A stretch of 64,000 bases of DNA from Mageeibacillus sp. UBA1212. Its GTDB lineage: Bacteria; Bacillota; Clostridia; UBA1212. Position 1 is the stretch's first letter. The number at the start of each line of letters is the position of its first letter. Shown piece after piece: positions 6,746 to 60,283 of this stretch. Both the position numbers and the translations under genes were made by a program. The DNA is taken from positions 72,771 to 136,770 of the forward strand of contig DBXM01000016.1 of NCBI GenBank assembly GCA_002309655.1, read 5' to 3'. Below the pieces are notes generated by a model. It was not told where the DNA came from. It did no database searches and saw only the letters and a program-made list of their open reading frames with translations.

Positions 6746-6746
6746 G

Positions 6747-7580: not shown

Positions 7581-7647
7581 AAGAACCGTCCTCCGTCCGC
7601 ACGTATCCGCACATGTAAAAATGCGGTTCATGCTTTTTCACAGTTCT

Positions 7648-33786: not shown

Positions 33787-34800
33787 TTACCCGCTCTCAT
33801 ACTGGTAGGAATGCTGGTAGAACGACACTTCAACAGTAATTCCGCACCTTACCATACACTCGTTCGATATTCTAAGCAGTTTTTCCGCATTCTCAAGCCC
33901 GCTCAGATTGTCCGGCAGAATCAGAATCATCTTTTTTGATTTGATTTCCTTCTTTGTAACCGTCACGCCGTCGCACTCGCCCTCCTCAAAAGCCGCCAGC
34001 TTTTCGGCCATGTTCAGCACTTTTCTCAAAAGCTCTCTCTCCGAAGCGTACGAAGGCGCAGTTGCGTCGACAGAGTAAAGCATCGTGGCAACCCCGGTTT
34101 TCCTGTCGATAATGTCAATCACGGGAAAGAACGATGGGAGATTGGAACTGTATATTTCTTCAAGAACCCGCCCGCGTTTCAGCGAAGGCAGCTCCCACAC
34201 ATTTATCTCGTCAACCGTATACCTTGAGCATCCTCCGTAAAGCCACCCGTTCCCTTTCAGGCAGAAAAACGCCCTTACCCCCGCGCCTTCTCCGAATATT
34301 ACAGGGAAAACGTAATCGCTTCTCGTATACACCTTGACCGTGAATTCATTTCCGTTTTCGTAGAACTCGCTTCCCGCCAGCGATACGATCTCCGCCTTGA
34401 ACGGAAGGCCCGATTTCACTCTTTCTTTTTCGAGCTCTTCGGCAAGAACCCCCTGCATCACCGCAGTCCATGCGCCAGATTCGATCTTCGAAAACGCCAC
34501 CGACGCCAGCTCATTCGCGATCTTCCCCGACATTCCGTCCTCGGGAAGGCAGTCCATCGCCTTTCTCCTTACGTTTTCTTTCAGCGACTCAAGTCCACTC
34601 TTATAGAAGATGCACGAATCGCAAGCAAGCTTCTCGGAGGCAGTCAGCACCGCGTTCGCCGTCATATAATAGAGGCAGAAATACTGTATCATCCCGATAA
34701 GAAAGAATACCGTAAAGGAGAAAAATACCGAAGTTATCGCCCCCTCGATGCTTATAGAACCGCCGGAACTGCGCACGCCCTCTTCTTTAATATGACGCAT
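33787..34800 (-). CDS. TadE/TadG-like pseudopilin-family protein with class-III (prepilin-like) N-terminus and large C-terminal domain
   Basis: The ATG at 34800 has a GGAAGGTGAG ribosome-binding site. The N-terminus MRHIKEEGVRSSGG-SISIEGAITSVFFSFTVFFLIGMI matches the TadE signature G-S-x-x-x-E-x-A followed by a hydrophobic helix, with Glu at +5 after Gly. It is 337 aa. The start overlaps the upstream gene's stop by 14 nt. Confidence 0.5.
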   Translation of the reverse strand: MRHIKEEGVRSSGGSISIEGAITSVFFSFTVFFLIGMIQYFCLYYMTANAVLTASEKLACDSCIFYKSGLESLKENVRRKAMDCLPEDGMSGKIANELASVAFSKIESGAWTAVMQGVLAEELEKERVKSGLPFKAEIVSLAGSEFYENGNEFTVKVYTRSDYVFPVIFGEGAGVRAFFCLKGNGWLYGGCSRYTVDEINVWELPSLKRGRVLEEIYSSNLPSFFPVIDIIDRKTGVATMLYSVDATAPSYASERELLRKVLNMAEKLAAFEEGECDGVTVTKKEIKSKKMILILPDNLSGLENAEKLLRISNECMVRCGITVEVSFYQHSYQYESG

Positions 34801-36868
34801 CCGCACTCACCTTCCAATCGTACCTTCTTCTGAACAGTCTGTCCGTCATCAAAAACGTTTTGACCTTCATAGTGCATTCGGCGGAAACGCTCGCGGCAAA
34901 ATCTTCGATTTCCTTGTACATGCCGTTGTCCTTCCAGTAATTGAGTTCAATTATGTCCTGGATGCGCCCGAGTTTTGTCTCCAAGGGAACCGTCAGCAGC
35001 AGGATCCTCAGATATTCACTGTATGACATTGCAGAGAGGTTTGTGCTTTCACCCCTTCCGGAACCGGTTGAATCACCGCTCCCTGAGTTCCCGCCGTTTT
35101 CGCCGATAGCGCTTCCGGCCTCACCGAGAACACCCTCTATCGACACCTTCCAGTCCTTCTCTCTTTTAATCAGAGGAACCTTTTTGCCTCCGTGCAGATC
35201 CGCGATGTCCATTCCTGTCTCCAGAAAAGCCCATGACAGCACTATCGCTGCGGTTACCGGAGCCTCCCCGCATGAAATCTCTTCGACTGCTTCCGATTTT
35301 TCCTCGCTCGACATAATGTGAAGCACGTTCAATCCAAGCCTCAGCGAAAACAGTTCCGCGTATGCCGCGAGCATATTCTCGTCATCCGTTCTGCCACCGA
35401 AAAGCACATACTCTATCTCGCCGTTTAAAAGGTGCGCATTCGAGTCCTTGACCTCCGAGGTATTCTTCATGTAGGTCGCAATATAGTCGTCGATATAGTA
35501 CCACTCCATGCAGCCTGTGAGCGCGTCCTCCAGCCTTTTCGCAAAGCCCGCGTACCCTTCCAGCGAAGTCGAGAATTTCAGTTTCTCGGCCACCCATGTA
35601 ATGCTGCGCCAGATCTTTTCAAAAGACCAGTCTTCACCTTCTTTCGAAGGCAGCTCTTCATAAATGTCGGGATCGATCTCGGAGTTAGCCGCGGGAAGAA
35701 AATGAAGGAAATCCGACGCCGCGTCGACCGCAGTTTGATAAAGGCTCTCCTGAGAAGATGACGCAGCGGTCTGTTCGTAGTTGTTCTGCTCCACTTTGAG
35801 ATAGTTTCTGTATGCGTTTCCCGCGGCATCTATAACCGCGTATATTTCCCCCAGAACCACCGGATTACCGGCCGCGATCGTCTGCTCAAGCTCGTATTCC
35901 GCCGCCGTGGCCTTCTGAAGACTGTAGTAATTCTTCCCGAGCTTATCCGCGACGATAGAATAGTCACCGTTTTCGCCGAGTTTTTTTCGCCTTTCCTTTA
36001 TCTTTTTGATGATTTCATCCGCGGACTCCTCTCCGTCATCCGAGGTCCTCGCCTCGCTCTCCGCTTTGCTCAGAAGCTTCCCCGCCTCCCTCGTTAGTTC
36101 GATAATATCCTCCGTAATGTCAAGCGCCTGTCTGTTGTTCTCCGAAAAAATCACCGCCCCCATCAGAAAAGTCTTGACCGCGTTCTTCAGCAATTCCGCA
36201 GCCCTTTCGTCATAGATCTCCAGTTCGGCAGGAACCGCCTGCGTCACCTTTTTTATCTCGGCATCCAGATTTTTCGCAAATATCGTGTCGAAAAAGCCGT
36301 TGACGCCGCCGGCGACCGCACCGTAAACGCCGTTAAGCGCAAGCTCAAGGTCCTTCCTCTTTCCTTCAATCTCCTCGATTATGTTGTCCGCCCGGTTTAT
36401 ATAGGTATAAGCGCTGACTTTCCGCCCCGCTCCGACCATTGCCTGCACCTTCTCCACAATCGAAACCGCCGCGTTCCCCCATGATTTGTATTTCATAAGG
36501 TCCCTGATCTCTTCACGAAGCACGTCCTTGTCGGCAAGCGAATCCCCGTAGCTGATTTCAAATCCGGTCACCTCCCTTTCGGGAATGAAAAACATATCGT
36601 AATCGCCGCGCGCGAAAAGTCCCGTCATTCCCTGATTTCTGCTCTCCCGTGTTATCTCGTAGAACCGGTTCGAAAGCTCGTCTTCTTTGGTGATATCGAC
36701 GAAGTACAGACCGTAATTCGCTTCGAGCCGCCTGTCGAACTGGGCAAGCACCGACGCGCACGCAAAATCCGCGACTCTCTCTGAAATCCTTCTCTGAAAC
36801 GCGACGGCGAGAATGTCCTGAAACGCGAAATTCAGCAGAATCACAGAAGCGGTTATTATGCACATCAT
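34787..36868 (-). CDS. Large membrane-anchored protein of unknown function, middle gene of the pseudopilin-like operon. The start is ambiguous: ATG at 36868, or TTG at 36931.
   Basis: It is 694-714 aa with an N-terminal hydrophobic helix (MMCIITASVILLNFAF). The body is a long alpha-helical, E/K-rich domain with a Gly/Ser-rich linker (GENGGNSGSGDSTGSGRGES). No catalytic motif was recognised. It sits between two TadE-like genes and is translationally coupled to both. Confidence 0.4.
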   Translation of the reverse strand: MMCIITASVILLNFAFQDILAVAFQRRISERVADFACASVLAQFDRRLEANYGLYFVDITKEDELSNRFYEITRESRNQGMTGLFARGDYDMFFIPEREVTGFEISYGDSLADKDVLREEIRDLMKYKSWGNAAVSIVEKVQAMVGAGRKVSAYTYINRADNIIEEIEGKRKDLELALNGVYGAVAGGVNGFFDTIFAKNLDAEIKKVTQAVPAELEIYDERAAELLKNAVKTFLMGAVIFSENNRQALDITEDIIELTREAGKLLSKAESEARTSDDGEESADEIIKKIKERRKKLGENGDYSIVADKLGKNYYSLQKATAAEYELEQTIAAGNPVVLGEIYAVIDAAGNAYRNYLKVEQNNYEQTAASSSQESLYQTAVDAASDFLHFLPAANSEIDPDIYEELPSKEGEDWSFEKIWRSITWVAEKLKFSTSLEGYAGFAKRLEDALTGCMEWYYIDDYIATYMKNTSEVKDSNAHLLNGEIEYVLFGGRTDDENMLAAYAELFSLRLGLNVLHIMSSEEKSEAVEEISCGEAPVTAAIVLSWAFLETGMDIADLHGGKKVPLIKREKDWKVSIEGVLGEAGSAIGENGGNSGSGDSTGSGRGESTNLSAMSYSEYLRILLLTVPLETKLGRIQDIIELNYWKDNGMYKEIEDFAASVSAECTMKVKTFLMTDRLFRRRYDWKVSADASY

Positions 36869-36884
36869 CGGCGTCACCGATCCG

Positions 36885-37148
36885 CTATTCCTCCCCGAAA
36901 AGCATTTCAAAAATATCACCCCCTGCGTCAAAAACCGAGCTTACGGCTCTGTGAACGTCCGCGTATTCCGGATTACTCTCTACTTCCTTTTCTGAATACC
37001 TGACCGCGCCGGCAAAAACGTTAACGTAGGCGCCGATCAATATCGCAACAAAAATCAGTACCAGCGGAACAACTACGGCCGCCTCCGTAGTCAGACTCCC
37101 TTTGTCGCCCTTAAAGAACCTTTTCCCCTGGATTTTACCGTTTCGCAT
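36885..37148 (-). CDS. TadE-like (Flp-pilus assembly TadE/TadG N-terminal domain) small pseudopilin
   Basis: The ATG at 37148 has a GGGGGGTGGTGAGG ribosome-binding site. The 87-aa sequence MRNGKIQGKRFFKGDKG-SLTTEAAVVVPLVLIFVAILIGAYV matches the TadE N-terminal signature RGSAAVEFALVLP. The track ORF's 5' extension to 37265 lacks a ribosome-binding site and overlaps the repeat array. Confidence 0.6.
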   Translation of the reverse strand: MRNGKIQGKRFFKGDKGSLTTEAAVVVPLVLIFVAILIGAYVNVFAGAVRYSEKEVESNPEYADVHRAVSSVFDAGGDIFEMLFGEE

Positions 37149-37215
37149 CCTCACCACCCCCCTTTGGTGCAATACGATTATACCCGATCCTTTGCGCGAA
37201 TGAAAGTCTGCACTG

Positions 37216-37302
37216 TTCGTCACATTTCGACAGAATTCGTCGTATTTCGACTTATTTCGTCGCAATACGTCACTTTTCGTCAGTTTTCGACAAATTTCGA
37301 CG
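37216..37302 (+). repeat. Nine tandem heptamers in exact 10-bp register, each 0-2 mismatches from TTCGACA (reverse complement of the Spo0A 0A box TGTCGAA); candidate response-regulator binding array
   Basis: The heptamers start at 37216, 37226, 37236, 37246, 37256, 37266, 37276, 37286 and 37296. In order they read TTCGTCA, TTCGACA, TTCGTCG, TTCGACT, TTCGTCG, TACGTCA, TTCGTCA, TTCGACA, TTCGACG. Two copies match the 0A box exactly and most have one mismatch. The array lies 68-154 bp upstream of the TadE-like start at 37148. Confidence 0.6.
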
Positions 37303-37455
37303 TAAAATCCGAGAATTTCTCAAAATGCGGCATGTTAAAAGAACGAATAAACTCCAAGCTCGCCCCTCAATAATAGCTCGCCAAAAAACACTTTTTTAAA
37401 CAAAAAAGACACCCCAAAGGGTGCCCTCTTCGCGTTGTATTCATTATTCAAACGG

Positions 37456-38208: not shown

Positions 38209-39114
38209 CTACGGCGTCACAGTCTCGATTTTCGCCCTGTTCTCGAAAACGCTGCCGCTTAGAATAATGTCTCCGTACCCGGGTGCGCGAATGACGCCCT
38301 TTGCCGGATTCTTGACGGAATCAATGACCGTTGTAACGTCAGCGTCGACTTCCGAATACTCGAAGCTCAGGTCGCAAGCGTACATCTCGCAGTTTATCAG
38401 CATCAGTTTTTTGCAGTAGCAAAGAGGCTGCGTACCGCTGATTTTGCAATTGATCAGCGTCAGGCCTTCGGAATACCACCCGAGGTACTCCCCGTTAAGA
38501 ACCGAATCCTTCACCGTAACATTCTTTGAGTGCCAGAACGCGTCCTTCGTGTTCAGCTCGCAGTTCGAAATCCCGGCGTTTTTGACATACTGGAACGAGT
38601 ACTTCCCCGCCAGCACGGAATCAGTAAGCGTCAGATTTTCGGTCTTCAGGAACGGATACTCCGAAGTGATCCGCGACTCCTTCACGGTCACCCTTTTGTT
38701 AAGCCAGCCGAACTCTGAGGATACTATCGTTGAGCCTGCAACGTCGACGTCCCGGCATTCACGGACTGCCTTGACCCCGTTCAACACAGAATTAACAATT
38801 TTGATGTTCTTCGCGTACCAGAGCGCCGCACGCGCCGTCTCCGTCATTTCCGAGTTCTCAATAACTGTATTCTCGGTATGCCAGAGCGGGTATCTAAGTC
38901 TGAAAAGACATCCTTCCACTTTGATTCCGCGGGTCTCCTTAAGAGCGGATTCCCCGTCTTCCTCACCCTCAAACCGGCAGCCGGAAACAACGGTATTCGA
39001 AATCCCGTAAAGCGCCCTTTCCTCAGAGAAAACACGTCCTGACACGGTTTCGCAATCCGCTTCAACGTTCCTATTATTTTTGTCCGGCAAATGCGAGCCG
39101 TAAATATCTTTCAT
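38209..39114 (-). CDS. Right-handed parallel beta-helix repeat protein (DUF3737-like)
   Basis: The ATG at 39114 has an AAGGT ribosome-binding site. It is 301 aa with repeating 22-aa beta-helix rungs (NxxIxNSVLNG..., VTVKDSVLNGEY, LTLINCKISG, LMLINCEMYA). Confidence 0.45.
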   Translation of the reverse strand: MKDIYGSHLPDKNNRNVEADCETVSGRVFSEERALYGISNTVVSGCRFEGEEDGESALKETRGIKVEGCLFRLRYPLWHTENTVIENSEMTETARAALWYAKNIKIVNSVLNGVKAVRECRDVDVAGSTIVSSEFGWLNKRVTVKESRITSEYPFLKTENLTLTDSVLAGKYSFQYVKNAGISNCELNTKDAFWHSKNVTVKDSVLNGEYLGWYSEGLTLINCKISGTQPLCYCKKLMLINCEMYACDLSFEYSEVDADVTTVIDSVKNPAKGVIRAPGYGDIILSGSVFENRAKIETVTP

Positions 39115-39341
39115 TGTAAAACCTTCGATCAAGACGGATAGTCAAAAGCGCAGTTCCGCCTCCCGCAAACATATACGGAAGAGCGCCAGCCGCCCGGGGA
39201 GACTAACGCCCGCAAAGAGCGCACTTCTCCCCAATCACATTAAAACGGTCTGCGCTTAATCATTCCCCATAATCGGTCCGTCGACAAGCAGTAAAAACGC
39301 ACCGTCGACGCAAACCGGTTACAATACAACGAATTAAAAAA

Positions 39342-42658: not shown

Positions 42659-43129
42659 TCATCCGTAATACACGCTCTCCTCAAGCTCATCCTCGTCGTA
42701 ATCCTCTCCCTCCGGCTCGTATTTGATTCCCTTGATCTTCCCGCCGAACATCATGAACATTTCCGGCAGTCTGAACAGTTCACAGTACTTCTTTATTTTC
42801 TCCGGCGGAAGACTCTCAAAGAATTCGCTGTCGTCAGGCGCCAGCGCCACAAAAAACGTCCCGGCTATAATGTCCTGAAGGTTTCCATCACTGTCATACA
42901 GCCCTCTGTTTAAAGGCATTCCGAGCAGTTTTCCCTCCTCGTTGCATATAATGGTCGCATCGTCGTCAAACGGCATGATCGACTCAATCAGTCCGTCCAC
43001 GACCTCCTGCATTGCCTCCAGCGTCTGGTCTATCATTACCGTCTCCGGGGTCTTTCCCGGTTTCACAACCAAAACCTCGATTTTCTTCACGCCGATGTTA
43101 GGCGCTTCTTTAACCTTCTCTGTTTGCAT
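42659..43129 (-). CDS. DUF3846-like small acidic protein
   Basis: It is 156 aa. The pattern V(V/I)KPGKTPE...GLIE....D.ATIICNEEGKLLGMPLNRG matches my memory of the DUF3846 family, which is often carried on Firmicutes conjugative elements or phages. Confidence 0.4.
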   Translation of the reverse strand: MQTEKVKEAPNIGVKKIEVLVVKPGKTPETVMIDQTLEAMQEVVDGLIESIMPFDDDATIICNEEGKLLGMPLNRGLYDSDGNLQDIIAGTFFVALAPDDSEFFESLPPEKIKKYCELFRLPEMFMMFGGKIKGIKYEPEGEDYDEDELEESVYYG

Positions 43130-43225
43130 AAGTTACACCTCCGCATAAAAAAGGAGCGGCAACCCGAAAGCTCCGCTCCCAAATACACCTGTCCCCCGCG
43201 GAACAGGCTCACATTAATATAATTA

Positions 43226-44755
43226 TCAGAAAACAATCTGCCTGTTTTCTTTCGCACAACCCGCTTCAGTCACGTCCTTCATGTTCGTCAGCGGCTGAAG
43301 CCCGTTCCCGTAAACGCAGTTCTCCGCAAGCGGCGGAAAATCCGGATTTCCGGTTCCCAGCATCAGATTGCCGTAGAAGAATCTGATGCCGTCCGATTTA
43401 AGCGCCGGCTCCCCTTTAAACGAGAAACCTGCATGTCCTCTTACCGACCTTTTCTCTCCCCTCTTCATGTCAAAAACATGCTCGATATAACCGTCTTCCG
43501 ACAAAAGCTTCACAGAGAAACATATGTCAGTCTTGGCAGTAACCGTGATCCTGTAGCTGTCCCCGTAGGGAATCTCGCCCGAAAACGAAATTACAAGCGA
43601 CTCCGTCGTAAGCTCCGCATCCCCGCCGATCGTGACAATGATGTTCCTGTCTTCGTCTGTCAGGAAGAAATTCTCAAAGAGTGAGGAAATGCCTTCTGCG
43701 CCCCTCATCGTGCAGCACCAGAAAGCCTCGCTGAGTCCGCCTCCGCTAGGTTTTAAAAACACTGTCTCAGGTCCCGTGGTGGTATCCGTCCCGAAGCCTC
43801 CGTTCGACCTCTGCGCATAGCAGAAAGCGTTGTAATAGATTCTCTGTGCAAGCTTAAGGTACCGCGGATCCTCTGTAGCCCTGTAGAGCGAGAACGCCGC
43901 CATAAGCGAGTCGGTGATCGCGCAGGGCTCCGTCCACGTATCAAACCGCCCGAACCAGTTGAAATTCGCGTAGTTCTCCGTCATTCCCTCTTTAAGGTAA
44001 AGATCGAAAATCCGCTCCGCGGCGTCAAGATAACTCCTGTCGTCAGTCTTTTCGTACAGCCTCAGAATTCCGCGCACCGCGCTTAAAGTGGCGTGCGTCT
44101 GCATGTGCGAGGTTACGAAATCGATGCCGGTAAATACGCCAATCATCTCATCCAGAAGCGCCTTGACCTCTTCTCCGCCGAAAAGCGAATAGTATTGCGC
44201 GAGTCCGTCCAGGCACATGAAAGCGCATCCTATATCGGTTGAAGTGACCCACGCTCCAATCTGCCCGGTGATGTTTCCGCCGTACGAGCCGCCTTTTCCG
44301 CGCCGCGCCGGGTCCACAGGATAGTCGTCGTAATACCCTCTCGCGGGAAGATACAGCCTCTCGACAATATTCTTAACCGTCTCCGCAGCCTCTTCGCTCC
44401 CGGTTTTCAGGTAGTACTCCATCAACCCGCGTATCAGCCAGTTGTGCCCCGAGAACTGCTGCTCGTCGAAGGCACCGTTCGGCAGGATTCTCCCAAGGTA
44501 ACCTCTTGCGTTCAGATGCGACCGGATTCCGTCGATGATTTCATCAAGATAAGCAGGCCTCGTTCCAAGGGCTTTCCAGTTTGACACGAGCGCAAGAATC
44601 GTTCTTCCCTCCCAGTCGCCGGGCCACCCCTGATGGTCTTGCGTGTAAATCGCGACCGGTCTGTAGATATATGAACACATCCTCGCCGAATTCAGGAGCG
44701 CCCTCTCCTTAAGTTCGCCTCTCACTACGGGTAATTCCTTGATTCTTCTGAGCAT
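43226..44755 (-). CDS. GH127/DUF1680-like glycoside hydrolase (beta-L-arabinofuranosidase-like (alpha/alpha)6 barrel)
   Basis: The ATG at 44755 has a GGAGGT ribosome-binding site. It is about 509 aa and cytoplasmic. A vicinal Cys pair in FWCCTMRGAEG resembles the Cys-Cys Zn/nucleophile motif of GH127 HypBA1. A W/Y-rich helical-barrel N-terminus is present. Confidence 0.45.
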   Translation of the reverse strand: MLRRIKELPVVRGELKERALLNSARMCSYIYRPVAIYTQDHQGWPGDWEGRTILALVSNWKALGTRPAYLDEIIDGIRSHLNARGYLGRILPNGAFDEQQFSGHNWLIRGLMEYYLKTGSEEAAETVKNIVERLYLPARGYYDDYPVDPARRGKGGSYGGNITGQIGAWVTSTDIGCAFMCLDGLAQYYSLFGGEEVKALLDEMIGVFTGIDFVTSHMQTHATLSAVRGILRLYEKTDDRSYLDAAERIFDLYLKEGMTENYANFNWFGRFDTWTEPCAITDSLMAAFSLYRATEDPRYLKLAQRIYYNAFCYAQRSNGGFGTDTTTGPETVFLKPSGGGLSEAFWCCTMRGAEGISSLFENFFLTDEDRNIIVTIGGDAELTTESLVISFSGEIPYGDSYRITVTAKTDICFSVKLLSEDGYIEHVFDMKRGEKRSVRGHAGFSFKGEPALKSDGIRFFYGNLMLGTGNPDFPPLAENCVYGNGLQPLTNMKDVTEAGCAKENRQIVF

Positions 44756-45001
44756 ATAAACCTCCAAAAAGCATTCTGGTAAAAGAGAAATGTCTCAAAA
44801 AGCATTTATAAACCGCTGTCCGCCGTTCCGGAACAGAATTCTATCCGCCGATATTATAATCCATACGCCTGCGAAAAACAATAAACGAATTCCCTTCCCT
44901 CCTGTTGTGCGGTCAAATACACAAGGCGGACACGTTCCCGAAACCCAACCGGGCATTTCAAGAACATGCCGCCCCGCGCTCAGGCAGTTTAACCGTTCAA
45001 G

Positions 45002-46816
45002 TTAAGCAGCCGCTCTCTCCTTTTTGACCTTTCTGACGATAAGGATACCAGAAGTCACCGCAATCGCGGCAAGACTGATGATTCCCAGAACGATTTCCGG
45101 TACGCTGAGGGCTTTGACTCCGGTTGCCGGCTGTTCCTCAACGGACGTCTTTCTTGCCGTGTACCAGACCGTCAGGTGCTTGTCCCCGTCAAGAACGTCG
45201 CCCTTGGGTTCGTCGCCTGTCGTTTTCTCCAGCCTATCGTAGCCATCAATTTCAAGAAGAGTCTTTCCGGTGCAATCGTATGAGGAATTGTGCTCGGCCG
45301 TCTGGGTCGAATCCTCCGAGAGCATCTTCTCCGTCTCGAGCTCCCTATAAGAGACAGTGATCACGTTATCGTACGCGTAGTGAAAATTGATATTCTTGTC
45401 GCAGTCCAGAAGCCCAACCACCGCATCGCCGTCTGCCGCGCTGTAGTAATACGAGGTGTTTTCAGTTTCGATCTCGTCGATTTTCGTCTCGGTGCGGTCG
45501 TAGTCCGACAGATTCTCGCCAGTCGTAATCACTTCGGTATGGATGATCTCGCCTGTATACTTGTCGCGGTAGTTGACCACGATTTTGTGCGTGTAGCCGT
45601 ACGTGATGTCGATCAGAACGTCGCCGTCGATTGCATCCGCCGTAAGATTTCCGCCGTAAACCGCTCCGAACACGTACTCGCCGTCTTCACCTTCAACAGA
45701 GTATTTGTACTCGACACCGCCGAATTCGACCGCTTTGTTGTCGTCGAGCTGGCTGCGGCAGTCGTACGGTGCGAGATGCTCGACGTCAAGGCTGTAAGAG
45801 TCTTTGATCTCAAGAATTTCGCTTTCCGCGTATTTGTACTTGTCCAGGAACCTGACGGTAACCTTGTCATAGTAACCGTAGTAGGCGTTCACGATAACGT
45901 CGCCGTCCATAACTCCGGACAGTTTTTCCTCATTCTCGCACCGTCCGAGGCTAAGCTTGAAGGCGTGCCCGTCCTTGTCGATCTGCTGAACGAGCTTATC
46001 TCTCCTGTCGTATTCCGAGTTGTGTTCGATCTTGAGATCCGTGTAGGCCTCTTTAATGACCGCGCCGTCGTATTTCGAGAGATAGTTGAGCGTCAGAGTC
46101 TCGTAGTAGCCGTAATAAATGTTGACCGTAACGTTTTCAGAAATGTTGCCTACCAGACCCGCCTCGTTGTCGCAGCTTCCGAGCGACAGAAGGTAAGTAT
46201 GTCCGCCTGCGAAAATGCTCTCGAGCAGCTTGTCGCTGTAGTCGTACGCTTCACCGTTTTCGATCTCGTCCACAATGAAACTGTCTTTGATCTTCTCGCC
46301 TGTGTACTTGTCAAGATAGTTGACCGTGATTCCGAACCCGTAACCGTAATAAAGATCGATCACTTTGTCTGCGTCAAGCGTTCCGGAAACCGGGTCGCTG
46401 TTGCCCGCCTGAATTCCCGCCAGTGTGGCAGCCTCGTCGTAGTGATACTTTGAAAGATCAGGACTTACACTGCCGAGATCCTCGAAAATGAAATTGTACG
46501 TTTGGCCGGCGTTTCCTATCGCGGAAATATCGTACGCGGAATTGTGTTCCAGCACGCCGCTGTCCTTGCCGCCGAACAAAAGGAATCCTTTCACGGGATC
46601 GTCCTGCTTAATTATCGACATAAGCCTGGCTCTCGGACCCGCGTTCTCACTGCCACCGCCCGAACTGCCTGCCGAACCGGTATCGCTGATCTTAATTTCG
46701 TCAGCGCCGGTTCTGCTGTATAAAGGTCCGCCGCCCGACAGCATATTCGCGCCGCAGCCTGCAAATACCGCCAGCGCCAAAAACGCCAAAACAACCGAAA
46801 TAATAAACTTTTTCAT
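45002..46816 (-). CDS. Cell-surface lipoprotein with five MucBP-like repeats and a C-terminal transmembrane anchor (putative adhesin)
   Basis: The lipobox signal is MKKFIISVVLAFLALAVFAGC. Five repeats of about 80 aa have the form V(N/T)(Y/F)(L/R)DKYTGE.I....YY.GY. The C-terminal helix LSVPEIVLGIISLAAIAVTSGILIV is followed by a basic tail RKVKKERAAA. No LPXTG motif is present. Confidence 0.55.
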   Translation of the reverse strand: MKKFIISVVLAFLALAVFAGCGANMLSGGGPLYSRTGADEIKISDTGSAGSSGGGSENAGPRARLMSIIKQDDPVKGFLLFGGKDSGVLEHNSAYDISAIGNAGQTYNFIFEDLGSVSPDLSKYHYDEAATLAGIQAGNSDPVSGTLDADKVIDLYYGYGFGITVNYLDKYTGEKIKDSFIVDEIENGEAYDYSDKLLESIFAGGHTYLLSLGSCDNEAGLVGNISENVTVNIYYGYYETLTLNYLSKYDGAVIKEAYTDLKIEHNSEYDRRDKLVQQIDKDGHAFKLSLGRCENEEKLSGVMDGDVIVNAYYGYYDKVTVRFLDKYKYAESEILEIKDSYSLDVEHLAPYDCRSQLDDNKAVEFGGVEYKYSVEGEDGEYVFGAVYGGNLTADAIDGDVLIDITYGYTHKIVVNYRDKYTGEIIHTEVITTGENLSDYDRTETKIDEIETENTSYYYSAADGDAVVGLLDCDKNINFHYAYDNVITVSYRELETEKMLSEDSTQTAEHNSSYDCTGKTLLEIDGYDRLEKTTGDEPKGDVLDGDKHLTVWYTARKTSVEEQPATGVKALSVPEIVLGIISLAAIAVTSGILIVRKVKKERAAA

Positions 46817-46836
46817 ACCTTTCCTCTACCTCCGTA

Positions 46837-49530
46837 TTATGAAGAATGTTCCGCGCTGATAACTTCTCTGTGAAGTTCAGCGCCCGTGTATTTGTCCCTG
46901 TAGACAACCGTAATTGTGTGAAAATATCCGTATGTGACGTCCGTCTCGATATCGGAGTCCCCCGCGATTCCCGAAAGCGGAGCGCCGTAGACGCCGCCCA
47001 CCTGCAAATCTTCTTTAGTATAGTAGTAGCCGATGCCCTCCGACGTGATCTTCGAGAATTCCACCAGAATGTCCGAACAGTCGTACCCCTCTCCCGGAGT
47101 GAGAATGAACGTCAGCGAATCTTTAATCCGCTTTTTCTCACCTTGAGCGTACAGATATTTATCGTAAAAGTTGACCGTAAGCCTCGGGTATCTGATATTC
47201 CTGAACAATACCGTCCTGCTGCTTCCCGGCGCAAGGGTCACAGTTGCCGACAAAGAAACAGTCGTTTCACCGTCCAGAGTGACCTCTGTTTTATCAAACC
47301 TTTGGCAGTTTCCCGTTATCTCGCGCACCGTCCATTCGCCAGCGGGAAGCCCTTCGACCGCAATCGTGTTCAGCGTCTCGCCGCCATTGGAACTCACGTT
47401 CAGTCTGACCTCGATTTTGCCTTCAACTAGGGAATAATTATTCCTGTTAAGAGTTACGTCGCCCTCCGCGGTACCCGCAACCTGCAAGCCGTCCTGAACG
47501 ATTGTTCCCTCGCAGGATATGAAGATCCTTACCGGTGAACCGTTCACGCCGCCGGCGATCTCGAAATACGTATCCGAAAAGTCGTTTCCCGTCGCGATTT
47601 TGCCGACTTCCAGAACGGTATTCACGGTTTTTAAGTTGTCGAATCTCGCAGTCGCGGGCGCACCAGGATTTCGCGTAACCGCCACAGTAAGACTGTCGGA
47701 AGGCGCCGAATAATCCTCTCCCGCGTATGTCGCATTGAACCTTGTAAGATCACCGGCGAGAATTTCCCTGACCTGCCAGTTTCCCTCGGGAAGACCCGAT
47801 ATTTTAATCCGCCTCAGAGCTCTTTGATCGCTGCCCGTTATATTGTCCGTTGCGACAGTCACGAAATCCGGCCTTACCGTATTGAACCCGATCTCGATTC
47901 TTTTAAGACCTGCGGGACCCAGTGCGTAATAGACCGCGTCTTCAACGAATCCGCCGCTTGCGTCAACGGTGAATTTTATGTTTCCGTTAAGGCTGTCAGC
48001 GCCGCTCACCTCAAAGAACGTGACCGAATAGTCTCCGCCCTCGGCATACTTCAATATGTCGAGTTCACCCGTAAAAACGGTGTTTACGACCGTTATTTCT
48101 CTGCCCGTATCCGCGACGGTAAAAGCGTACCGCCCTGCGGCATCAGGTTGAAGAACGGTATTACCCACTTTTACAGTGCCTGTTCTGTATCCGAGCCCTG
48201 AATTCTCCTCCGTCAGATAATAAGTGCCCGGTCTCAGCCTCAGATTCGCCTTTCCGTCTGCGCCGGTTACCAAAGTGTACGTTTCGCCCCCGGAAGCAGA
48301 CTCGATTACGAAAACAAAGCCTGCCTTCGACGCGTTTCCCGAAGAAGCACCGTCAACCGTTACGGATTTAGACACGCTGACAAGCGGCGCCTCCGACACC
48401 TGGTACCGGAGACCCACGCCTCCCGCTTTGAGCTGGTCTGTAACGTATCTCGCTGCGGTCGCTCCGTACGACTCAATTCGCGGCATGCTGTCGAGGTTCT
48501 CGATACCCATCCACCCTTTGGAAGTATATACGGACGAAGGCAGATTCTGGAAAAGCGCCGCGATTCCCATCGAGAGAAACTCGCCGCTGACTTTCGCCTT
48601 GAGGTCAGCCTCTTCGCTCCTGAACAAAACATTGACGTTGTCAGCGTTGCTCGTGAAATTATACCTGCCCGTGATCATCGCTGCCGATATTTCAGTCGCC
48701 GTAAGCGCCATCGCGTAGCCGCTCCTCAGCTGAACCGTCACCACAGGCTCGTACTCGAACACCCAAGGCACGCACGAAGTGTGGAGCATGTCGTCTCCCC
48801 TAATCGCGCTCACCATGCCGAGGCCCCACTCCGCGCCTGTTTTCGTCGCGCCGTTCAGCGTAAACGTCAGGTTCGAAAGTATGCCCTCGACCGTTCCGTC
48901 ACATGCCTCCGCCGCCAGCTCAATCAGTTTGTTCGACGTCTCCGCACCTGTAAAGAACGCATACGCGCCTGAAGCGTTCCCGCCGAAATTCGGGATGTCA
49001 GGCACCTCGTTATCTCCCGTGAAGCCGTAGTTCTGGCCGTTAAAGCAGATCGACGAAAGCTCCGCGTAAGTTCCTTGTTTAAAGAATTCGGACGCCTGCA
49101 TGCTGCCGTTCCTGTACTCTTCGAAATGGTCTCTGTACCACTGTTTGTCTCTTACGGTCAGGAAGAAGTTCGACGCCTGATAATTCGCGGCCGCAAGGCC
49201 CGCGCCGTGGTTTGCGTCCTTATATAGATAGAACGAGTTTCCGAACTTGTAGTAGTCTCTCGACAGCTTCTGCGTCCCGAGCTGCGCGTCAAAGTCCTGC
49301 TCCGCAGACGAGTGCGACAGCGAATCCGATTTTCCCACGTACACCGACACCTTCCACATACAGTATACGTTCATGTAGCTTCCGTTCCCCGTAGCGCCTC
49401 CGATTACCGCCCCCTCGTCGCTTATAAGGTCGTTTTCGTCTGTAATGGCTCTGGTTCTCCCCGCGGGAATCGAGAAGAACGCCGCGACAACAAGAATCGC
49501 AACCGTGGCAATTATGAATAAATTCCTGTT
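46837..49530 (-). CDS. Large secreted surface protein (about 898 aa) with Cna-B/prealbumin-like Ig-fold domains and C-terminal MucBP-like repeats; putative adhesin
   Basis: A TTG start at 49530 lies 6 nt after the AGGGGTGAG ribosome-binding site. It gives the signal peptide (M)NRNLFIIATVAILVVAAFFSIPAGRTRA. The track's upstream ATG at 49629 lacks a ribosome-binding site. Repeated beta-sandwich segments are present (GTYYLTEENSGLGYRTGTVKV). The last 150 aa repeat the same YDKYxxA / YRDKYTGAE motif seen in the downstream gene. Confidence 0.5.
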   Translation of the reverse strand, partial: NRNLFIIATVAILVVAAFFSIPAGRTRAITDENDLISDEGAVIGGATGNGSYMNVYCMWKVSVYVGKSDSLSHSSAEQDFDAQLGTQKLSRDYYKFGNSFYLYKDANHGAGLAAANYQASNFFLTVRDKQWYRDHFEEYRNGSMQASEFFKQGTYAELSSICFNGQNYGFTGDNEVPDIPNFGGNASGAYAFFTGAETSNKLIELAAEACDGTVEGILSNLTFTLNGATKTGAEWGLGMVSAIRGDDMLHTSCVPWVFEYEPVVTVQLRSGYAMALTATEISAAMITGRYNFTSNADNVNVLFRSEEADLKAKVSGEFLSMGIAALFQNLPSSVYTSKGWMGIENLDSMPRIESYGATAARYVTDQLKAGGVGLRYQVSEAPLVSVSKSVTVDGASSGNASKAGFVFVIESASGGETYTLVTGADGKANLRLRPGTYYLTEENSGLGYRTGTVKVGNTVLQPDAAGRYAFTVADTGREITVVNTVFTGELDILKYAEGGDYSVTFFEVSGADSLNGNIKFTVDASGGFVEDAVYYALGPAGLKRIEIGFNTVRPDFVTVATDNITGSDQRALRRIKISGLPEGNWQVREILAGDLTRFNATYAGEDYSAPSDSLTVAVTRNPGAPATARFDNLKTVNTVLEVGKIATGNDFSDTYFEIAGGVNGSPVRIFISCEGTIVQDGLQVAGTAEGDVTLNRNNYSLVEGKIEVRLNVSSNGGETLNTIAVEGLPAGEWTVREITGNCQRFDKTEVTLDGETTVSLSATVTLAPGSSRTVLFRNIRYPRLTVNFYDKYLYAQGEKKRIKDSLTFILTPGEGYDCSDILVEFSKITSEGIGYYYTKEDLQVGGVYGAPLSGIAGDSDIETDVTYGYFHTITVVYRDKYTGAELHREVISAEHSS

Positions 49531-49641
49531 CAAATCAATCTCACCCCTGTAAGAAAATAAAAAAGAGCAGCGAAAATAACTTCTCTGCTCCTCTGCCCGC
49601 CGCGATGCGTATAAATCATGCGGCATCAATTAATTACCGTG

Positions 49642-50292
49642 TCAGGCCGTCTTCCTGAACCCGTCTTTTGAAAGCGACGGAAGATAGCTCTCCAGCTTTT
49701 CCGCTCTTGCCTCCTCGACGGCATTGAGAGCCTCTTCAAGGTCCTCCGGACAGCAGATTCTCGACGGTCTTGCGTTAAAATCAAGAATCTTCTCCGCGCC
49801 TTTTACGTAGCACGTTCCGAACAGGCACACGTACCCTCCGACGTCGCTGTCAATGACCGTCACGCAGTCCTCGACCCTGGCGTACTGTCTGATTACGGAA
49901 TTGCCGCCGACCGACGCCTCGTCTCTCAGCTGCGCAAAATCCCTGATCTCGCACATTCCGAAAGCCCTCGAATTGTCGCGCATGGTCACCGTAGGAACGC
50001 TTATCCGCTCGATTCCGCGCACCCACGCGTTCTCCGAGACATAGGCCCGGCCGAAGACCGCAGCCCCTTTTCCGACCCAGCAGTTACCCTCCTGCGACAG
50101 ATTCCACTCTCCTTCAATCAATCCGCCGGTCTCGCCGCGTTTTACGATCAGCCCGGGATACTTGTCCCTGCCTATCGAATTGCCCTTAACCGGCCTCAAA
50201 ACAAAACTCTTCACCGCAACTATTCTGTAAAGCGTTCTGCCGAACAGTTGAACGGGTTCGTTTTCAATTATTCTGTATTTCATTTCCGACAT
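49642..50292 (-). CDS. Hexapeptide-repeat (left-handed beta-helix) protein of unknown function, paralog A
   Basis: It is 216 aa. The N-terminal 60 aa read MSEMKYRIIENEPVQLFGRTLYRIVAVKSF, followed by [IV]-x-G-x-A-x hexad repeats. It shares its architecture and N-terminal motif with the adjacent gene. Confidence 0.45.
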   Translation of the reverse strand: MSEMKYRIIENEPVQLFGRTLYRIVAVKSFVLRPVKGNSIGRDKYPGLIVKRGETGGLIEGEWNLSQEGNCWVGKGAAVFGRAYVSENAWVRGIERISVPTVTMRDNSRAFGMCEIRDFAQLRDEASVGGNSVIRQYARVEDCVTVIDSDVGGYVCLFGTCYVKGAEKILDFNARPSRICCPEDLEEALNAVEEARAEKLESYLPSLSKDGFRKTA

Positions 50293-50340
50293 TACCGTTA
50301 ATTCCTCCGTACCGGACGCGCATGTATACGCGCCCGCATT

Positions 50341-51063
50341 TTATACTGCGACGGGATTCGCGCTTCCGCACAGAACCCCTTTGTTTACCCGCTTGCAGCC
50401 GTCAAGAACGTACTCTCCCATTACGACCGCGTCGCCCGAAACGATGCAAAGATCTTTTACGACCGCGTTGTTCTTGACGAAAGCGCATCCTTTGACTGCC
50501 GCCGCACCGCCGACTCTCGCGTGATCCGAGACTCTCGCAAAACCGGTCACGACCGAGTTGCCTCCTATCTCCGCATACCCCTTGATTACCGCTCTGTTCA
50601 TTATCTTCGCGTTGCCGCTGATTCTGGCCCGCTGAAGTATTTTCGCGCTATGCTTAATCTGGGAGCATCCGCACACCAGGCTGTTGCCTCCAATCTCGAG
50701 AATGTCGCCGGTTTCCGCGTTTTTTCTTCCGTTTACCTTCACCGGAAAATCGAGAACGTCCGCCCTCGGGTTCCGTCCGCACGTGCCTTCCACGACCGCG
50801 TTGTCGCATACCGAAGCGCTTCCATGTACCAGCGCGTAGCCGAGCACCTTTGAGTTTCCGCTCACGACCGCGTTTTCCATAACGACCGCGTTGTTGTAAA
50901 TCCAGCAGTCGCCTTCATGAGAAAGATTCGTCTCGTTCTCCACATACCCGCCGAATTCGCCCTCGCAGACGTCGGAAAAACTCCTGAGCGCTCTTATTTT
51001 ATACACCCGTTTGCCGTAAACCTCGCCTTCTCCGTTTCCGGTCAGAATCTCGTATTTTTTCAC
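50341..51063 (-). CDS. Hexapeptide-repeat (left-handed beta-helix) protein of unknown function, paralog B (GTG start)
   Basis: It is 240 aa. The N-terminus reads (M)KKYEILTGNGEGEVYGKRVYKIRALRSF. It is followed by 12 or more consecutive hexads (ISGNAK IMNRAV IKGYAE IGGNSV VTGFAR VSDHAR VGGAAA VKGCAF ...). The GTG start follows a GGGGGTGGGAG ribosome-binding site. Confidence 0.45.
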   Translation of the reverse strand: MKKYEILTGNGEGEVYGKRVYKIRALRSFSDVCEGEFGGYVENETNLSHEGDCWIYNNAVVMENAVVSGNSKVLGYALVHGSASVCDNAVVEGTCGRNPRADVLDFPVKVNGRKNAETGDILEIGGNSLVCGCSQIKHSAKILQRARISGNAKIMNRAVIKGYAEIGGNSVVTGFARVSDHARVGGAAAVKGCAFVKNNAVVKDLCIVSGDAVVMGEYVLDGCKRVNKGVLCGSANPVAV

Positions 51064-51416: not shown

Positions 51417-52163
51417 TCAGTTTCTCCCGATGTCCGACCTGCCGCTGGCGAATACCGCCGCATCCACAGACAGCGCTCCGAGTTCGTCGACAATCAGCTC
51501 CGCGCACTCCCTGAGAGTCGCGCCTGTCGTCAGAATGTCGTCAATTAAAAGAATCTTTCTCCCCGCGACTTTTTCACGGTTGCCGTCGCCGTTAACTCTG
51601 AACTTCCCTGAAGCGTTTGAGCTTCTCTGGACAAATCCGAGCCGGCTCTGCTTCTGCCTCCCGGAGTCCGCCTCAAGGAGCCTCAGCGTCTCGATTCCGC
51701 TCAGTTTTGAAATCTCCGCCGTCATTTCGTGGCATTGGTCAAAACCTCTCTTTCTGAAACGGTCCCTGCTGACGGGAACGTACGAGATATATGAATACTC
51801 CCGGAACCACGCGCCGAACGATTCATAGAGCAGCTTGCCGAAGCGTTTTCCCATCCATACTTCCCCTTTAAACTTGTAACGCGTAAAAGCCTCTTTAAGC
51901 GCCCCCGAATAACGTCCGTAGCAGTACAGTTTCCCGAACGGATAGATATCTCCCGGGTGTTCGTTCGGCATTGTATACCGGACGACGTCTTTGGCGCACT
52001 TCGGGCATATGACCGGCCCGCGTACGGAATTCCCGTCAACCGCTGAAGTTCTTTTCGAAGTCCCTTCCGTAGCGGTGCTTCCGCCGCAGATGACGCAAAT
52101 CTCGGGAAATAACAGCTCATCAAAAAAAGTTGTAATTCCGTAGAATACTTTTCTTTTATTCAT
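51417..52163 (-). CDS. comFC: ComF-family phosphoribosyltransferase-domain protein (ComFC-like)
   Basis: An N-terminal double C-x-x-C zinc finger (CVICGG...CPKCAK) and a C-terminal PRTase motif KILLIDDILTTGATL are present. The start at ATG 52163 is favoured over the track's GTG-initiated 30-aa extension. No comFA helicase gene is adjacent. Confidence 0.7.
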   Translation of the reverse strand: MNKRKVFYGITTFFDELLFPEICVICGGSTATEGTSKRTSAVDGNSVRGPVICPKCAKDVVRYTMPNEHPGDIYPFGKLYCYGRYSGALKEAFTRYKFKGEVWMGKRFGKLLYESFGAWFREYSYISYVPVSRDRFRKRGFDQCHEMTAEISKLSGIETLRLLEADSGRQKQSRLGFVQRSSNASGKFRVNGDGNREKVAGRKILLIDDILTTGATLRECAELIVDELGALSVDAAVFASGRSDIGRN

Positions 52164-52245
52164 TGTTCTTCGCGGCGGCGCGAACCCCTCTTCCCGGACA
52201 GATTCAGGCAAAACAGAAATATCCGGCTTTGTTCCGGCGGGAATG

Positions 52246-52593
52246 TCATTCACCGGAAGCCGCCTTGAGCTCTTCGGCTTTAACGAGCGTCAGTTCGGGA
52301 ACGCTTTCCGCACCCGGGGCGGCGGATTCATCGGACTTGGGCGCCTGCGGCCGGTAGCCGTCGGTCAGTTCGGAAGCGTTGATGTGCTTCATGTACTTGG
52401 CGAGCACAAGGAACTCGGGTCTCGTAAGAGTGATTCCCTTTCTCATGCTGGTGCGCTCGGGGCTCCACTCTCTGATGTCGAGCTTCGGACCTGAGTCGTT
52501 CCACTTGACAATGTTGACCTCGCGGGTCCAACCGTTGCCTCGGTCACTGAGTACGCAAATGTGTTTTACAATTTCATATTTTACTTCTGCCAT
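52246..52593 (-). CDS. YdbC-like / PC4-like ssDNA-binding family small protein
   Basis: The ATG at 52593 has a GGAGGT ribosome-binding site. It is 115 aa. The sequence MAEVKYEIVKHICVLSDRGNGWTREVNIVKWNDSGPKLDIREWSPE matches the bacterial YdbC (PC4-fold) family pattern. The C-terminus is acidic and low-complexity. Confidence 0.45.
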   Translation of the reverse strand: MAEVKYEIVKHICVLSDRGNGWTREVNIVKWNDSGPKLDIREWSPERTSMRKGITLTRPEFLVLAKYMKHINASELTDGYRPQAPKSDESAAPGAESVPELTLVKAEELKAASGE

Positions 52594-52626
52594 CGTTGTT
52601 ACCTCCTTTTTCGTTGGCGTACACGA

Positions 52627-52654
52627 ATTATACCTGTTCACAAACGGTTTTGCA
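52627..52654 (-). promoter_or_regulatory. Sigma-A-type promoter (TTGCAA-16-TATAAT) for the ydbC-like gene
   Basis: On the minus strand the -35 TTGCAA (plus coordinates 52649-52654) and the -10 TATAAT (52627-52632) sit about 30 nt upstream of the ribosome-binding site and ATG. Confidence 0.5.
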
Positions 52655-54575: not shown

Positions 54576-54593
54576 GCAAAACCCCTGAACTTT

Positions 54594-55157: not shown

Positions 55158-55270
55158 TACTTTTCTCCTGTTTTTAGGGAATTTCTCCCGGGCTTTGCCG
55201 CTACTGTTTCGTGAATGCGACGCGCCGCGGAAGCCCGCTGAAATCAAGGGTGCAACAAGTATAAGAGCTT

Positions 55271-56908: not shown

Positions 56909-56936
56909 TTCAGTTTTTTCCTTGTTTTAGGGCATT

Positions 56937-58046: not shown

Positions 58047-58118
58047 AAAACCACCTTGAAAAATATATTACTGCGTCGTATTGCGGAAAAGTAAACACTT
58101 ACGACTTTAGTATACTAT

Positions 58119-58150
58119 GTCGACCCGCGTGTATCGACACGCGGGTCGAC
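58119..58150. repeat. Perfect 14-bp-arm GC-rich palindrome GTCGACCCGCGTGT-ATCG-ACACGCGGGTCGAC
   Basis: It lies 29 nt downstream of the pgk-tpiA stop and about 70 nt upstream of the next gene's start. No flanking U-tract is present on either strand. SalI-type GTCGAC sites sit at both ends. Confidence 0.7.
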
Positions 58151-58178
58151 AATCATTTAATCAGTGTTCACTAACAAA

Positions 58179-60128: not shown

Positions 60129-60283
60129 AATAAGGACTCTCCTTTGCATGTATTTTATACGTTTTTATATTAGCACACCGCTTCCGTGTTTTCAAGAATC
60201 AAACCTTCGGCGGCGGCACGTATTCAGAAATTATCACTGTGAACGTTTGCGTAAAAAGCATTTACTCAGCGTTCACTTTGCGT

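Follow-up and report, generated by a model that had tools for sequence, protein, structure and literature searches.

Three prepilin-like genes of a rumen clostridial lineage as a candidate tip complex of a Tad-type pilus encoded in trans

A 64,000-nucleotide stretch of DNA from Mageeibacillus sp. UBA1212 (Clostridia; assembly GCA_002309655.1, contig DBXM01000016.1), called the window below, carries three overlapping head-to-tail minus-strand open reading frames (ORFs), A, B and C, whose products each start with a short charged leader, a glycine and a hydrophobic helix. What are such prepilin-like proteins for at a locus without a pilus machine? We propose that A, B and C form the tip or priming (minor-pilin) complex of a Tad-type pilus with its motor genes at another place in the genome, and give this reading a probability of about 0.6. 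Related loci used for comparison carry L-numbers; the closest all belong to metagenome-assembled genomes (MAGs) of uncultured rumen Clostridia, obtained from cattle, buffalo and goat rumen samples.

Three coupled genes for prepilin-like proteins

The N-terminus of A reads GDKG/SLTTEAAVVVPLVLIF (the slash stands behind the conserved glycine) with glutamate at +5 in G/SLTTE, and that of C reads SSGG/SISIEGAITSVFF, also with glutamate at +5 in G/SISIE, followed by GA. Both are class III signal peptides. B (RNSG/SVTPMMCIITASVILLNF) has the glycine and the helix without this glutamate: methionine occupies +5, and Glu5 is missing from B in all relatives, also in the distant locus L132. Alignment of A with the N-terminus of the 238-aa TadE-like first gene product of L132 covered leader and helix only (hhalign probability 93%, 33 columns). 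A may also be a Flp-like major pilin, with a mature form of about 70 aa; against this, the first gene of the module in distant relatives encodes a 217-238-aa TadE-like protein. The exact A sequence was found in rumen MAGs, always annotated as 'hypothetical protein', and the same annotation is given to the relatives' trio proteins, with the exception of P0012 ('pilus assembly protein').

The large protein B matched DUF5702 (PF18960) with 125 bits (E=2.6e-36, residues 462-681 of the 707-aa form), far above the gathering score of 26 bits. This domain is present in all B orthologues, and the homology to the 811-aa DUF5702 protein of L132 extends over the full length (hhalign probability 99.8%, E=4e-28, 640 columns). 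B is predicted to be a large TadG-like, mostly helical protein; it had no match to TadG-type families (PF13400, vWA). We found no paper on DUF5702, DUF4320, PF18960 or PF14208, and PADLOC returned nothing for the trio.

The C-terminal half of C has a different origin. It matched PF21111 (CDI_toxin_EC869_like) at residues 220-302 with 28.5 bits (cutoff 27), and a phmmer search against PDB chains retrieved 4zqu_A (E=2e-4) and, more weakly, 4g6u_A. In the AlphaFold model of C (mean predicted local distance difference test score, pLDDT, of 60.7) most of the C-terminal domain reached about 65-89, and the only significant Foldseek matches of the model were 4g6u_A (E=4e-7) and 4zqu_A (E=9e-7), so that the similarity to the toxin domain is found in both sequence and fold. 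In the N-terminal half the model, of low confidence there, resembles a pilin, with a helix of 52 residues (18-69), more helices and a sheet of three strands. The active site of EC869-type toxins consists of Glu177, Asp198, Ser209 and Lys211 (PMC9086364). In the HMMER alignment Asp198 corresponds to D229 of C, which is invariant in the subfamily, Ser209 to Met240, likewise invariant in the subfamily, and Lys211 to Tyr242, which is Y, L, V or A in orthologues; no counterpart was assigned to Glu177. The catalytic tetrad is thus not preserved, with both Ser209 and Lys211 replaced. Nor does C have a toxin delivery context: its N-terminus is a prepilin module, and the downstream genes are unrelated and differ between loci.

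An exhaustive search with a hidden Markov model (HMM) placed C in a family of at least 1,367 representative clusters at 50% identity (E<=1e-3; 579 at E<=1e-10), most of them with proteins of 260-430 aa, whereas word-indexed searches had given 12 matches for C and, with a single sequence and a 7-sequence profile, two close relatives for B. We counted motifs in 36 diverse members. Glu+5 was present in all 36, Gly-1 in 32, Ser+1 in 30 and Pro+11 in 27; PF21111 matched 35 of the 36, and TadE (PF07811) matched 24 of the 36 full-length homologues at E<=0.01 (best E=2.6e-9). Since these motifs and matches run through the family, C belongs, as judged from sequence, to a large group of TadE-type prepilins with a grafted CdiA-CT-fold domain. 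Invariant positions include W202, R209, G210, L221, S243 and P296. The position of the catalytic Asp is occupied by D in 16 members, A in 10 and S in 7, and that of the Lys by K in 15, R in 5 and other residues in 16, and the two are anti-correlated: members with the Asp have no Lys, and members with the Lys have no Asp. Two motif types can be recognized, 'PVID ... x-S-x-D' (Asp, no Lys) and 'PVI[AS] ... IKS-x-D' (Lys, no Asp). This pattern at C residues 229 and 242 suggests either that the two positions compensate each other or that there are two functional subtypes. Because the catalytic positions are not conserved in the family, we do not regard the domain as a canonical PD-(D/E)xK nuclease, and a binding or structural module is more likely.

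The trio is under selection. In a comparison of the window with L005 (Nei-Gojobori), the ratio of nonsynonymous to synonymous substitution rates (dN/dS) was 0.22 for A, 0.054 for B and 0.039 for C, and 0.026-0.13 for eleven neighbouring genes; dS was high (0.85-2.0), so these values are approximate. The prepilin motif itself is invariant among close orthologues. Purifying selection on the trio in the window's clade is unambiguous, and since dN/dS is low, we conclude that the trio still has a function even with no machine in cis.

The genes overlap, A and B by 26 nt and B and C by 14 nt (Table 1), and are therefore translationally coupled. The first value follows from a reset start of B: the ATG of its relatives (M[KRH]C[FL]...) aligns with the window TTG at 36910. 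In front of the ATG of A stands GGGGGGTGG; a longer TTG start of A at 37265 (126 aa) was rejected, since it would cross the repeat array and the -10 hexamer described below and since relatives use the ATG. The C-terminus of A carries the conserved motif P[DE]Y..[VIM]HR...F[DA]xGG, and its 'FDAGGD' is dual-coded with the Shine-Dalgarno sequence of B (GGGGGTGAT): at 36885-36931 the bases for VFDAGGD[IV][FY] double as ribosome-binding site and start codon of B. Conservation of the A C-terminus may thus partly reflect translational coupling and not protein function.

A preliminary description of this DNA, made from the sequence alone, had recognized the three coupled minus-strand genes and a TadE/TadG-like signature in two N-termini. 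The ORFs and their coupling are as it said, with the start of B moved from 36868 to 36910, and the signature in A and C is real, with Glu+5 invariant across the C family. It had also seen no recognisable domain in the roughly 700-aa middle protein, which the DUF5702 match contradicts, and had left the C-terminus of the 337-aa protein without a domain, where PF21111 was found and where the structure prediction and Foldseek search that it proposed have now been run on C.

Neighbourhood of the trio and the search for a machine

A Pfam scan of most large window ORFs revealed no T2SSE, T2SSF or Peptidase_A24 domain; it left out three long ORFs at 52950-60149, whose sequences resemble citramalate synthase, acetolactate synthase and a fusion of PGK and TIM. 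A tblastn search of the 64-kb window, with TadZ-like, ATPase, TadB/C-like, DUF4320 and A24 peptidase queries from the relatives, gave E=0.14 at best. In near-identical strains, about 4.5-5.3 kb past the upper edge of the window held no Tad genes. TadA/CpaF, TadB/TadC, a Flp pilin and TadV are therefore not co-encoded with the trio in the 64 kb, and with no cognate machine in the window any machine would act in trans. Beyond the same edge, L138 (3078-4256) carries an IS110 transposase and GH3 and L139 (4216-5304) YkuD and a Na/Pi cotransporter, a difference that points to strain-level rearrangement there.

The layout of the window is common to L005 (82% identity in B), L006 (97%) and L035. The next group, L001/L008, L002/L007 and L003/L004 (35-54% identity), is syntenic with the window on either side of the trio, and in L001-L004 and L008 a Tad-type machine block (genes in Table 1) lies 4.5 kb upstream of the trio, directly upstream of AMP-binding, alkaline phosphatase and HGSNAT genes. 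The window and L005 have other genes in its place, namely DUF3846, a GH127-like gene and genes for surface proteins. Compared with positions 1-5300 of L001, L002, L003 and L008, window 42659-51063 holds, besides DUF3846 and the GH127-like gene, a lipoprotein-like protein (604 aa), a SpaA-domain surface protein (930 aa) and two proteins of hexapeptide-repeat-like type; here one set of surface-structure genes took the place of another.

Further away, the order of small or TadE-like protein, DUF5702 protein and TadE+PF21111 protein is kept in L001-L005, L008, L130, L132, L134 and L135, and L136 and L137 keep the pair of DUF5702 and C-type genes with no clear first gene. In L132, a 4.34-Mb chromosome (GCA_942493145.1), the three proteins have 238 (TadE-like), 811 (DUF5702) and 368 aa (C-type). 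Directly after the module, L130 encodes a 207-aa Peptidase_A24 protein without methyltransferase domain, i.e. TadV-like. In several unrelated Clostridia the pair of DUF5702 and C-type genes, with or without a TadE-like first gene, forms an operon of its own, and for this module such an arrangement is the norm.

These comparisons change how the locus should be described. The preliminary description was right that the 64 kb hold no pilus ATPase, platform or prepilin peptidase gene, on which Pfam and tblastn agree, and its account of the neighbours as a GH43-like lipoprotein and an acyltransferase-3-like gene holds on domain search: the lipoprotein matches Big_2 and, weakly, GH130/GH43, and the acyltransferase is of the HGSNAT type. 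Its label 'orphan' fits the window, although the closest outgroup MAGs have a Tad-type machine 4.5 kb upstream. Its view of the arrangement as something exceptional does not survive, as the module or its DUF5702 + C-type core stands alone in L132, L134, L136 and L137 and, on the downstream side, in L135. The size of the C family and the published Tip clusters that lie apart from the Tad machine in Myxococcus (PMC12075869) also speak against an oddity.

Smaller differences were seen around the trio. At window 38209-39132, and likewise in L005 and L006, the alkaline phosphatase and HGSNAT genes are separated by a DUF3737 (beta-helix) gene; in L134 DUF3737 adjoins the alkaline phosphatase gene with no HGSNAT, and it is absent from L001-L004 and L008. 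Its presence is a small synteny difference marking the window's clade. In L132 (3757-6780), L136 (5905-7557) and L137 (4653-7388) the module lies beside a B12-binding radical-SAM (DUF4080) gene and a PBP5/S11 carboxypeptidase gene, and in L137 also near genes for HGSNAT acyltransferase and polysaccharide deacetylase. Such neighbours related to the cell wall recur, and there might be a functional link between them and the module.

Table 1 Features of the three-gene locus and of the machine block in the outgroup loci
Feature	Position in window	Strand	Description
Gene A	37148..36885	-	87 aa; ATG start, Shine-Dalgarno GGGGGTGG upstream
N-terminus of A			Leader MRNGKIQGKRFFKGDKG, then SLTTE(+5)AAVVVPLVLIF; TadE-like, Flp-sized prepilin-like protein
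Gene B	36910..34787	-	~707 aa; probable TTG start, from orthologue alignment
N-terminus of B			Leader LKCFSGRNSG, then SVTPM(+5)MCIITASVILLNF
DUF5702/PF18960 domain of B	35527..34868	-	Residues 462-681
Gene C	34800..33787	-	337 aa
C-terminal domain of C	34209..33811	-	Residues ~198-330; CdiA-CT EC869/YPIII nuclease fold
Tandem array	37215..37304	-	Nine exact 10-bp units wr-TGWCGAAA, then degenerate unit agTGCAGAC
Probable -10	37182..37177	-	TATAAT; ~23 bp downstream of degenerate repeat, ~28 bp upstream of A start
Outgroup block gene			CbiA/ParA-type (TadZ/CpaE-like) ATPase
Outgroup block gene			432-aa T2SSE ATPase; best NCBIfam match is the TadA family
Outgroup block genes			Two TadB/TadC-like membrane proteins, 311 and 289 aa
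Outgroup block gene			DUF4320 pilin-like protein
Outgroup block gene			161-171-aa pilin-like protein

A repeat array in front of gene A

Between the terminator hairpin of the HGSNAT gene and gene A lies a tandem array in which every unit holds a Spo0A-box-like heptamer, TGTCGAA or TGACGAA. We take its tandem 10-bp (7+3-bp head-to-tail) geometry to match that of the boxes at abrB. The 0A box of Spo0A is TGTCGAA (PMC3485338, PMC2731898), and the array, whose heptamers follow TGNCGAA, ends just upstream of the -35 position. A two-unit pattern gave seven overlapping matches at the array and none elsewhere in the window (0.87 expected). L005 carries 11 units (9524-9650), L006 and L035 carry 9; when the 29 units of the window, L005 and L035 were pooled, the seven core positions were conserved in 22-29 units, with the 2-bp spacers varying freely. 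The TATAAT hexamer is conserved in L005, L006 and L035. There is no good -35 hexamer, and a simple consensus scan did not call a promoter here; the poor -35 would be compatible with an activator-dependent promoter. A PhoP/PhoB pho box tied to the nearby alkaline phosphatase gene was rejected: heptamer and 10-bp period fit the 0A box and not TT(A/T/C)ACA at 11 bp, the form of the pho box.

No such array lies upstream of the trio in L001-L004, L130, L132 or L134, the last of which has a plain TTGACG-17-TATACT promoter instead. Since other lineages carrying the trio lack it, the array is a clade-specific, recent regulatory acquisition and not a property of the module. A three-unit scan of metagenomes yielded, among the matches listed, mostly unrelated 10-bp tandem repeats and one further trio locus (L035), but neither a Tad machine operon nor a sporulation gene behind such an array. 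The human-gut contigs L052 (3188-3213; 11038-11925) and L063 (2977-3002; 10809-11819) have three consecutive 0A-box-like units, and at a distance of about 8 kb a gene for a T2SSE-family ATPase; these ATPases are 28-29% identical to that of L008. At window 5012-7631 an NAD kinase-recN pair stands without the following spoIVB-spo0A, unlike in Bacillus and many Clostridia; opposite-strand sugar isomerase and oxidoreductase genes follow recN. The preliminary description had reported a dense response-regulator-like site array upstream of the trio, which is indeed present and made of Spo0A-box-like units. Its suggestion of a sporulation-linked module draws solely on this array, which is confined to the window's clade.

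The trio as a candidate pilus tip and its relation to known systems

The features of A, B and C map onto the scheme of a TadE/F/G-like heterotrimer, and for this reason we favour the tip complex. In type IV filaments the tip complex has a capping subunit that lacks Glu5, pilins can be modular and carry grafted domains, and in type IVc pili TadE/F fill the role of the tip complex and TadV is a peptidase without methylation domain (PMC10191384). A B protein that lacks Glu5 in all relatives and in L132 fits this cap rule. In the Kil system of Myxococcus, TadE/F/G-like heterotrimers form the tip, start polymerisation and decide what the pilus does; their genes lie in four clusters of three, of which three were newly identified outside the kil cluster, and the authors propose TadEFG as tips generally (PMC12075869). 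By analogy, A, B and C would be made as prepilins, inserted into the membrane through the N-terminal hydrophobic helix and cleaved behind the conserved glycine by a short TadV-type prepilin peptidase. The three helices would then bundle, with A as small Glu5 pilin, C as modular Glu5 pilin and B as large Glu5-less cap, and the trimer would prime polymerisation of a Flp-like major pilin on a TadA/TadB/TadC motor and end up at the distal tip. There B, with its large helical/DUF5702 body, and C, with its grafted domain, would be exposed as the functional end of the pilus, and the catalytically degenerate CdiA-CT fold of C could serve to bind surfaces, other cells or perhaps DNA. The genes for motor, platform, peptidase and major pilin would lie elsewhere in the genome, and transcription in the window's clade would probably be governed by a response regulator on the 9-11 helically phased sites that match the Spo0A box.

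Several results weigh against a Tad tip. No Tad machine was found in the 64 kb or in about 5 kb past the upper edge in near-identical strains, and the link between trio and machine comes from one lineage and the peptidase neighbour of L130. No T2SSE gene lies within 7-10 kb of the module in L132, L134, L136 and L137 (10 kb in L132) or in about 6 kb downstream in L135, where the upstream flank is only 260 bp long. The machine cluster of the relatives already contains two pilin-like genes (DUF4320 and 161-171 aa), and the trio may not be the only minor-pilin set there. At the protein level, window A scored 10.9 bits with TadE PF07811 (E=0.53; gathering score 22.9 bits) and window C gave no match in Pfam, so that the test for TadE suggested in the preliminary description fails for the window proteins themselves and succeeds for the 24 matching C homologues. 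No NCBIfam model matched the trio proteins, the N-terminal half of C was modelled with low confidence, and the model of B (pLDDT 33 from a 3-sequence alignment) was unusable.

The trio could instead supply minor pilins to another type IV machine (PilB/PilC of a type IVa pilus, or ComG), with the C fold as a DNA-uptake receptor. All type IV filaments share class III signal peptides, their prepilin peptidases are promiscuous (PMC12075869), most contexts of the trio have no Tad machine nearby, the restriction-endonuclease-type fold modelled for C could still bind DNA despite its lost catalytic residues, and transformation of Micrococcus is reported to be mediated by Flp/Tad pili (PMC4322843). The window itself contains, at 51417-52641, overlapping genes of competence-associated families for a ComFC-like phosphoribosyltransferase-domain protein (278 aa) and a PC4/YdbC-like ssDNA-binding-fold protein (131 aa). 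We nevertheless consider service to another machine unlikely: the prepilin features are of the TadE type (Pro+11, PF07811 in 24/36) and not of the ComG/PilA type, the peptidase adjoining the module in L130 is of the short TadV type, and the only machine near any trio is TadZ/TadA/TadBC-like. ComFC is also widespread in bacteria that are not competent. It is likewise conceivable, at somewhat longer odds, that the Tad machine was lost with the upstream block and the trio kept in a role that needs no machine, such as that of surface or envelope proteins anchored in the membrane. The replacement of the five-gene block of L001-L004 and L008 in the window and L005, the 64 kb without a machine and the stand-alone trios of many Clostridia would agree with this, but the whole proteins are under strong purifying selection with invariant Gly-1 and Glu+5, and a prepilin motif makes sense only with peptidase processing and incorporation into a filament. 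Split tad loci are common, with tadV lying apart in Bifidobacterium. The dispersed Tip clusters of Myxococcus provide a precedent (PMC12075869).

That the trio belongs to a sporulation or stationary-phase envelope apparatus switched on by Spo0A~P, and not to a vegetative adhesion pilus, seems to us less probable again. The 9-11 phased TGWCGAA units match the 0A box (PMC3485338, PMC2731898), the array is kept in four clade loci with its core constrained and its spacer free, distant homologues lie near CoatF and PrkA (L130) or a SpoIIAB-like kinase, PrkA and DUF444 (L135), and PBP5/S11 carboxypeptidases occur near the module in L132 and L137. These neighbourhood associations are weak, however, the array is a recent add-on absent from all other trio lineages examined, recN of the window lacks the following spoIVB-spo0A, and the metagenome matches listed include no second operon with such an array. 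Least probable of all, and largely refuted, is a role of C as a DNase toxin delivered by the pilus, which would be the Gram-positive counterpart of contact-dependent inhibition. The C domain is clearly homologous to the DNase domains of CdiA-CT EC869/YPIII, and Tad-like Kil pili kill on contact through tip complexes (PMC12075869). Yet the catalytic tetrad is not kept (Ser to Met, Lys to Tyr; Asp and Lys unconserved family-wide), none of the loci has a candidate immunity gene after C (what comes next is, among others, a glycosidase-like lipoprotein gene, an A24 peptidase gene or gyrB), and the domain is strongly conserved (dN/dS 0.039) instead of polymorphic, with nothing from PADLOC.

Compared with these alternatives, a Tad tip complex served in trans remains our preferred reading. 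A more far-reaching version of it can be imagined, though it is unlikely to hold in full: a widespread and so far undescribed Clostridia Tad tip with a DUF5702 cap and an inactivated CdiA-CT fold as ligand receptor (the ligand possibly DNA), which in the rumen lineage became detached from its motor and came under direct cooperative control by Spo0A~P through 9-11 phased 0A boxes, so that swapping in the tip, or building the pilus, is confined to the time when cells enter stationary phase or sporulation. Tad/Flp pili are major organelles of colonisation and adhesion and are almost unstudied in Clostridia, including gut and rumen fibre degraders. A conserved module annotated everywhere as 'hypothetical protein' is probably the Tad tip of Clostridia, which would give DUF5702 a role and would make the nuclease fold of contact-dependent inhibition a domesticated, grafted pilin domain. 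If so, the model of interchangeable TadEFG tips would extend from Myxococcus to monoderm anaerobes, there would be a handle on what Clostridia Tad pili bind, and the 9-11-repeat promoter would be an unusually extreme response-regulator array and a test case for cooperative Spo0A binding. New here are the composition of the module, with its DUF5702 TadG-like cap and a domesticated CdiA-CT fold on a pilin, the absence of papers on a module so widespread in Clostridia, and the extreme 0A-box-like array of the clade; tip clusters dispersed from their machine are already known.

Among known systems, the Zn-dependent DNases CdiA-CT EC869(o11)/TA271 and YPIII (4G6U, 4ZQU; PF21111) share the fold of the C domain. 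C differs in the replacement of Ser209 and Lys211, in its fusion to a prepilin module and not to the end of a two-partner-secretion CdiA filament, in having no CdiI-like immunity gene and in a conserved, not polymorphic, domain. The array resembles the Spo0A promoters of abrB and spoIIG, which likewise have direct-repeat heptamers at 10-bp spacing, a good -10 and a poor -35 (PMC3485338, PMC2731898); those have 2-5 boxes, and the 9-11 consecutive units of the window's clade are far denser, with Spo0A binding here only predicted. PilB (vWA, for von Willebrand factor A) and PilC (lectin) of Streptococcus sanguinis (cited in PMC10191384 and PMC12075869) are also pilin modules with a C-terminal graft, in a tip-located heterotrimer of a monoderm host, but they belong to a type IVa and not a Tad pilus, and their grafts are adhesive vWA/lectin domains and not a nuclease fold.

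The TadE/TadF/TadG proteins of Aggregatibacter, Caulobacter and Pseudomonas (PF07811; PMC10191384) share with the trio the class III leader with Gly-1, Glu+5 and Pro at about +11. Like the trio, their loci combine small pseudopilins with a large membrane-anchored protein; a TadV-type peptidase accompanies the trio by way of the L130 relative only, and a machine of the TadZ/TadA/TadB/TadC type lies near it in the nearest outgroup. Unlike those loci, the trio is not contiguous with a machine, its window proteins stay under the TadE HMM threshold, B has no TadG-family match, and C has a grafted restriction-endonuclease-fold domain that is not reported for TadE/F. From KilL/KilM/KilN of Myxococcus xanthus the trio is set apart by its monoderm Clostridia host, the DUF5702 large subunit, the degenerate CdiA-CT fold on one subunit and the lack of any sign of killing or of a partner like a type III secretion system; sequence homology is not detectable, and by sequence the Tip proteins are reported to be restricted to Myxococcota (PMC12075869). 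The Kil Tip is a helix-bundled heterotrimer whose largest subunit exposes a distal domain, an architecture that the trio is predicted to share. In organization the two are alike: the Kil genes also form three-gene clusters for TadE/F/G-like minor pilins with prepilin cleavage sites, several of these clusters lie away from the machine genes, and the complex that they encode primes polymerisation and sets the specificity of the pilus (PMC12075869).

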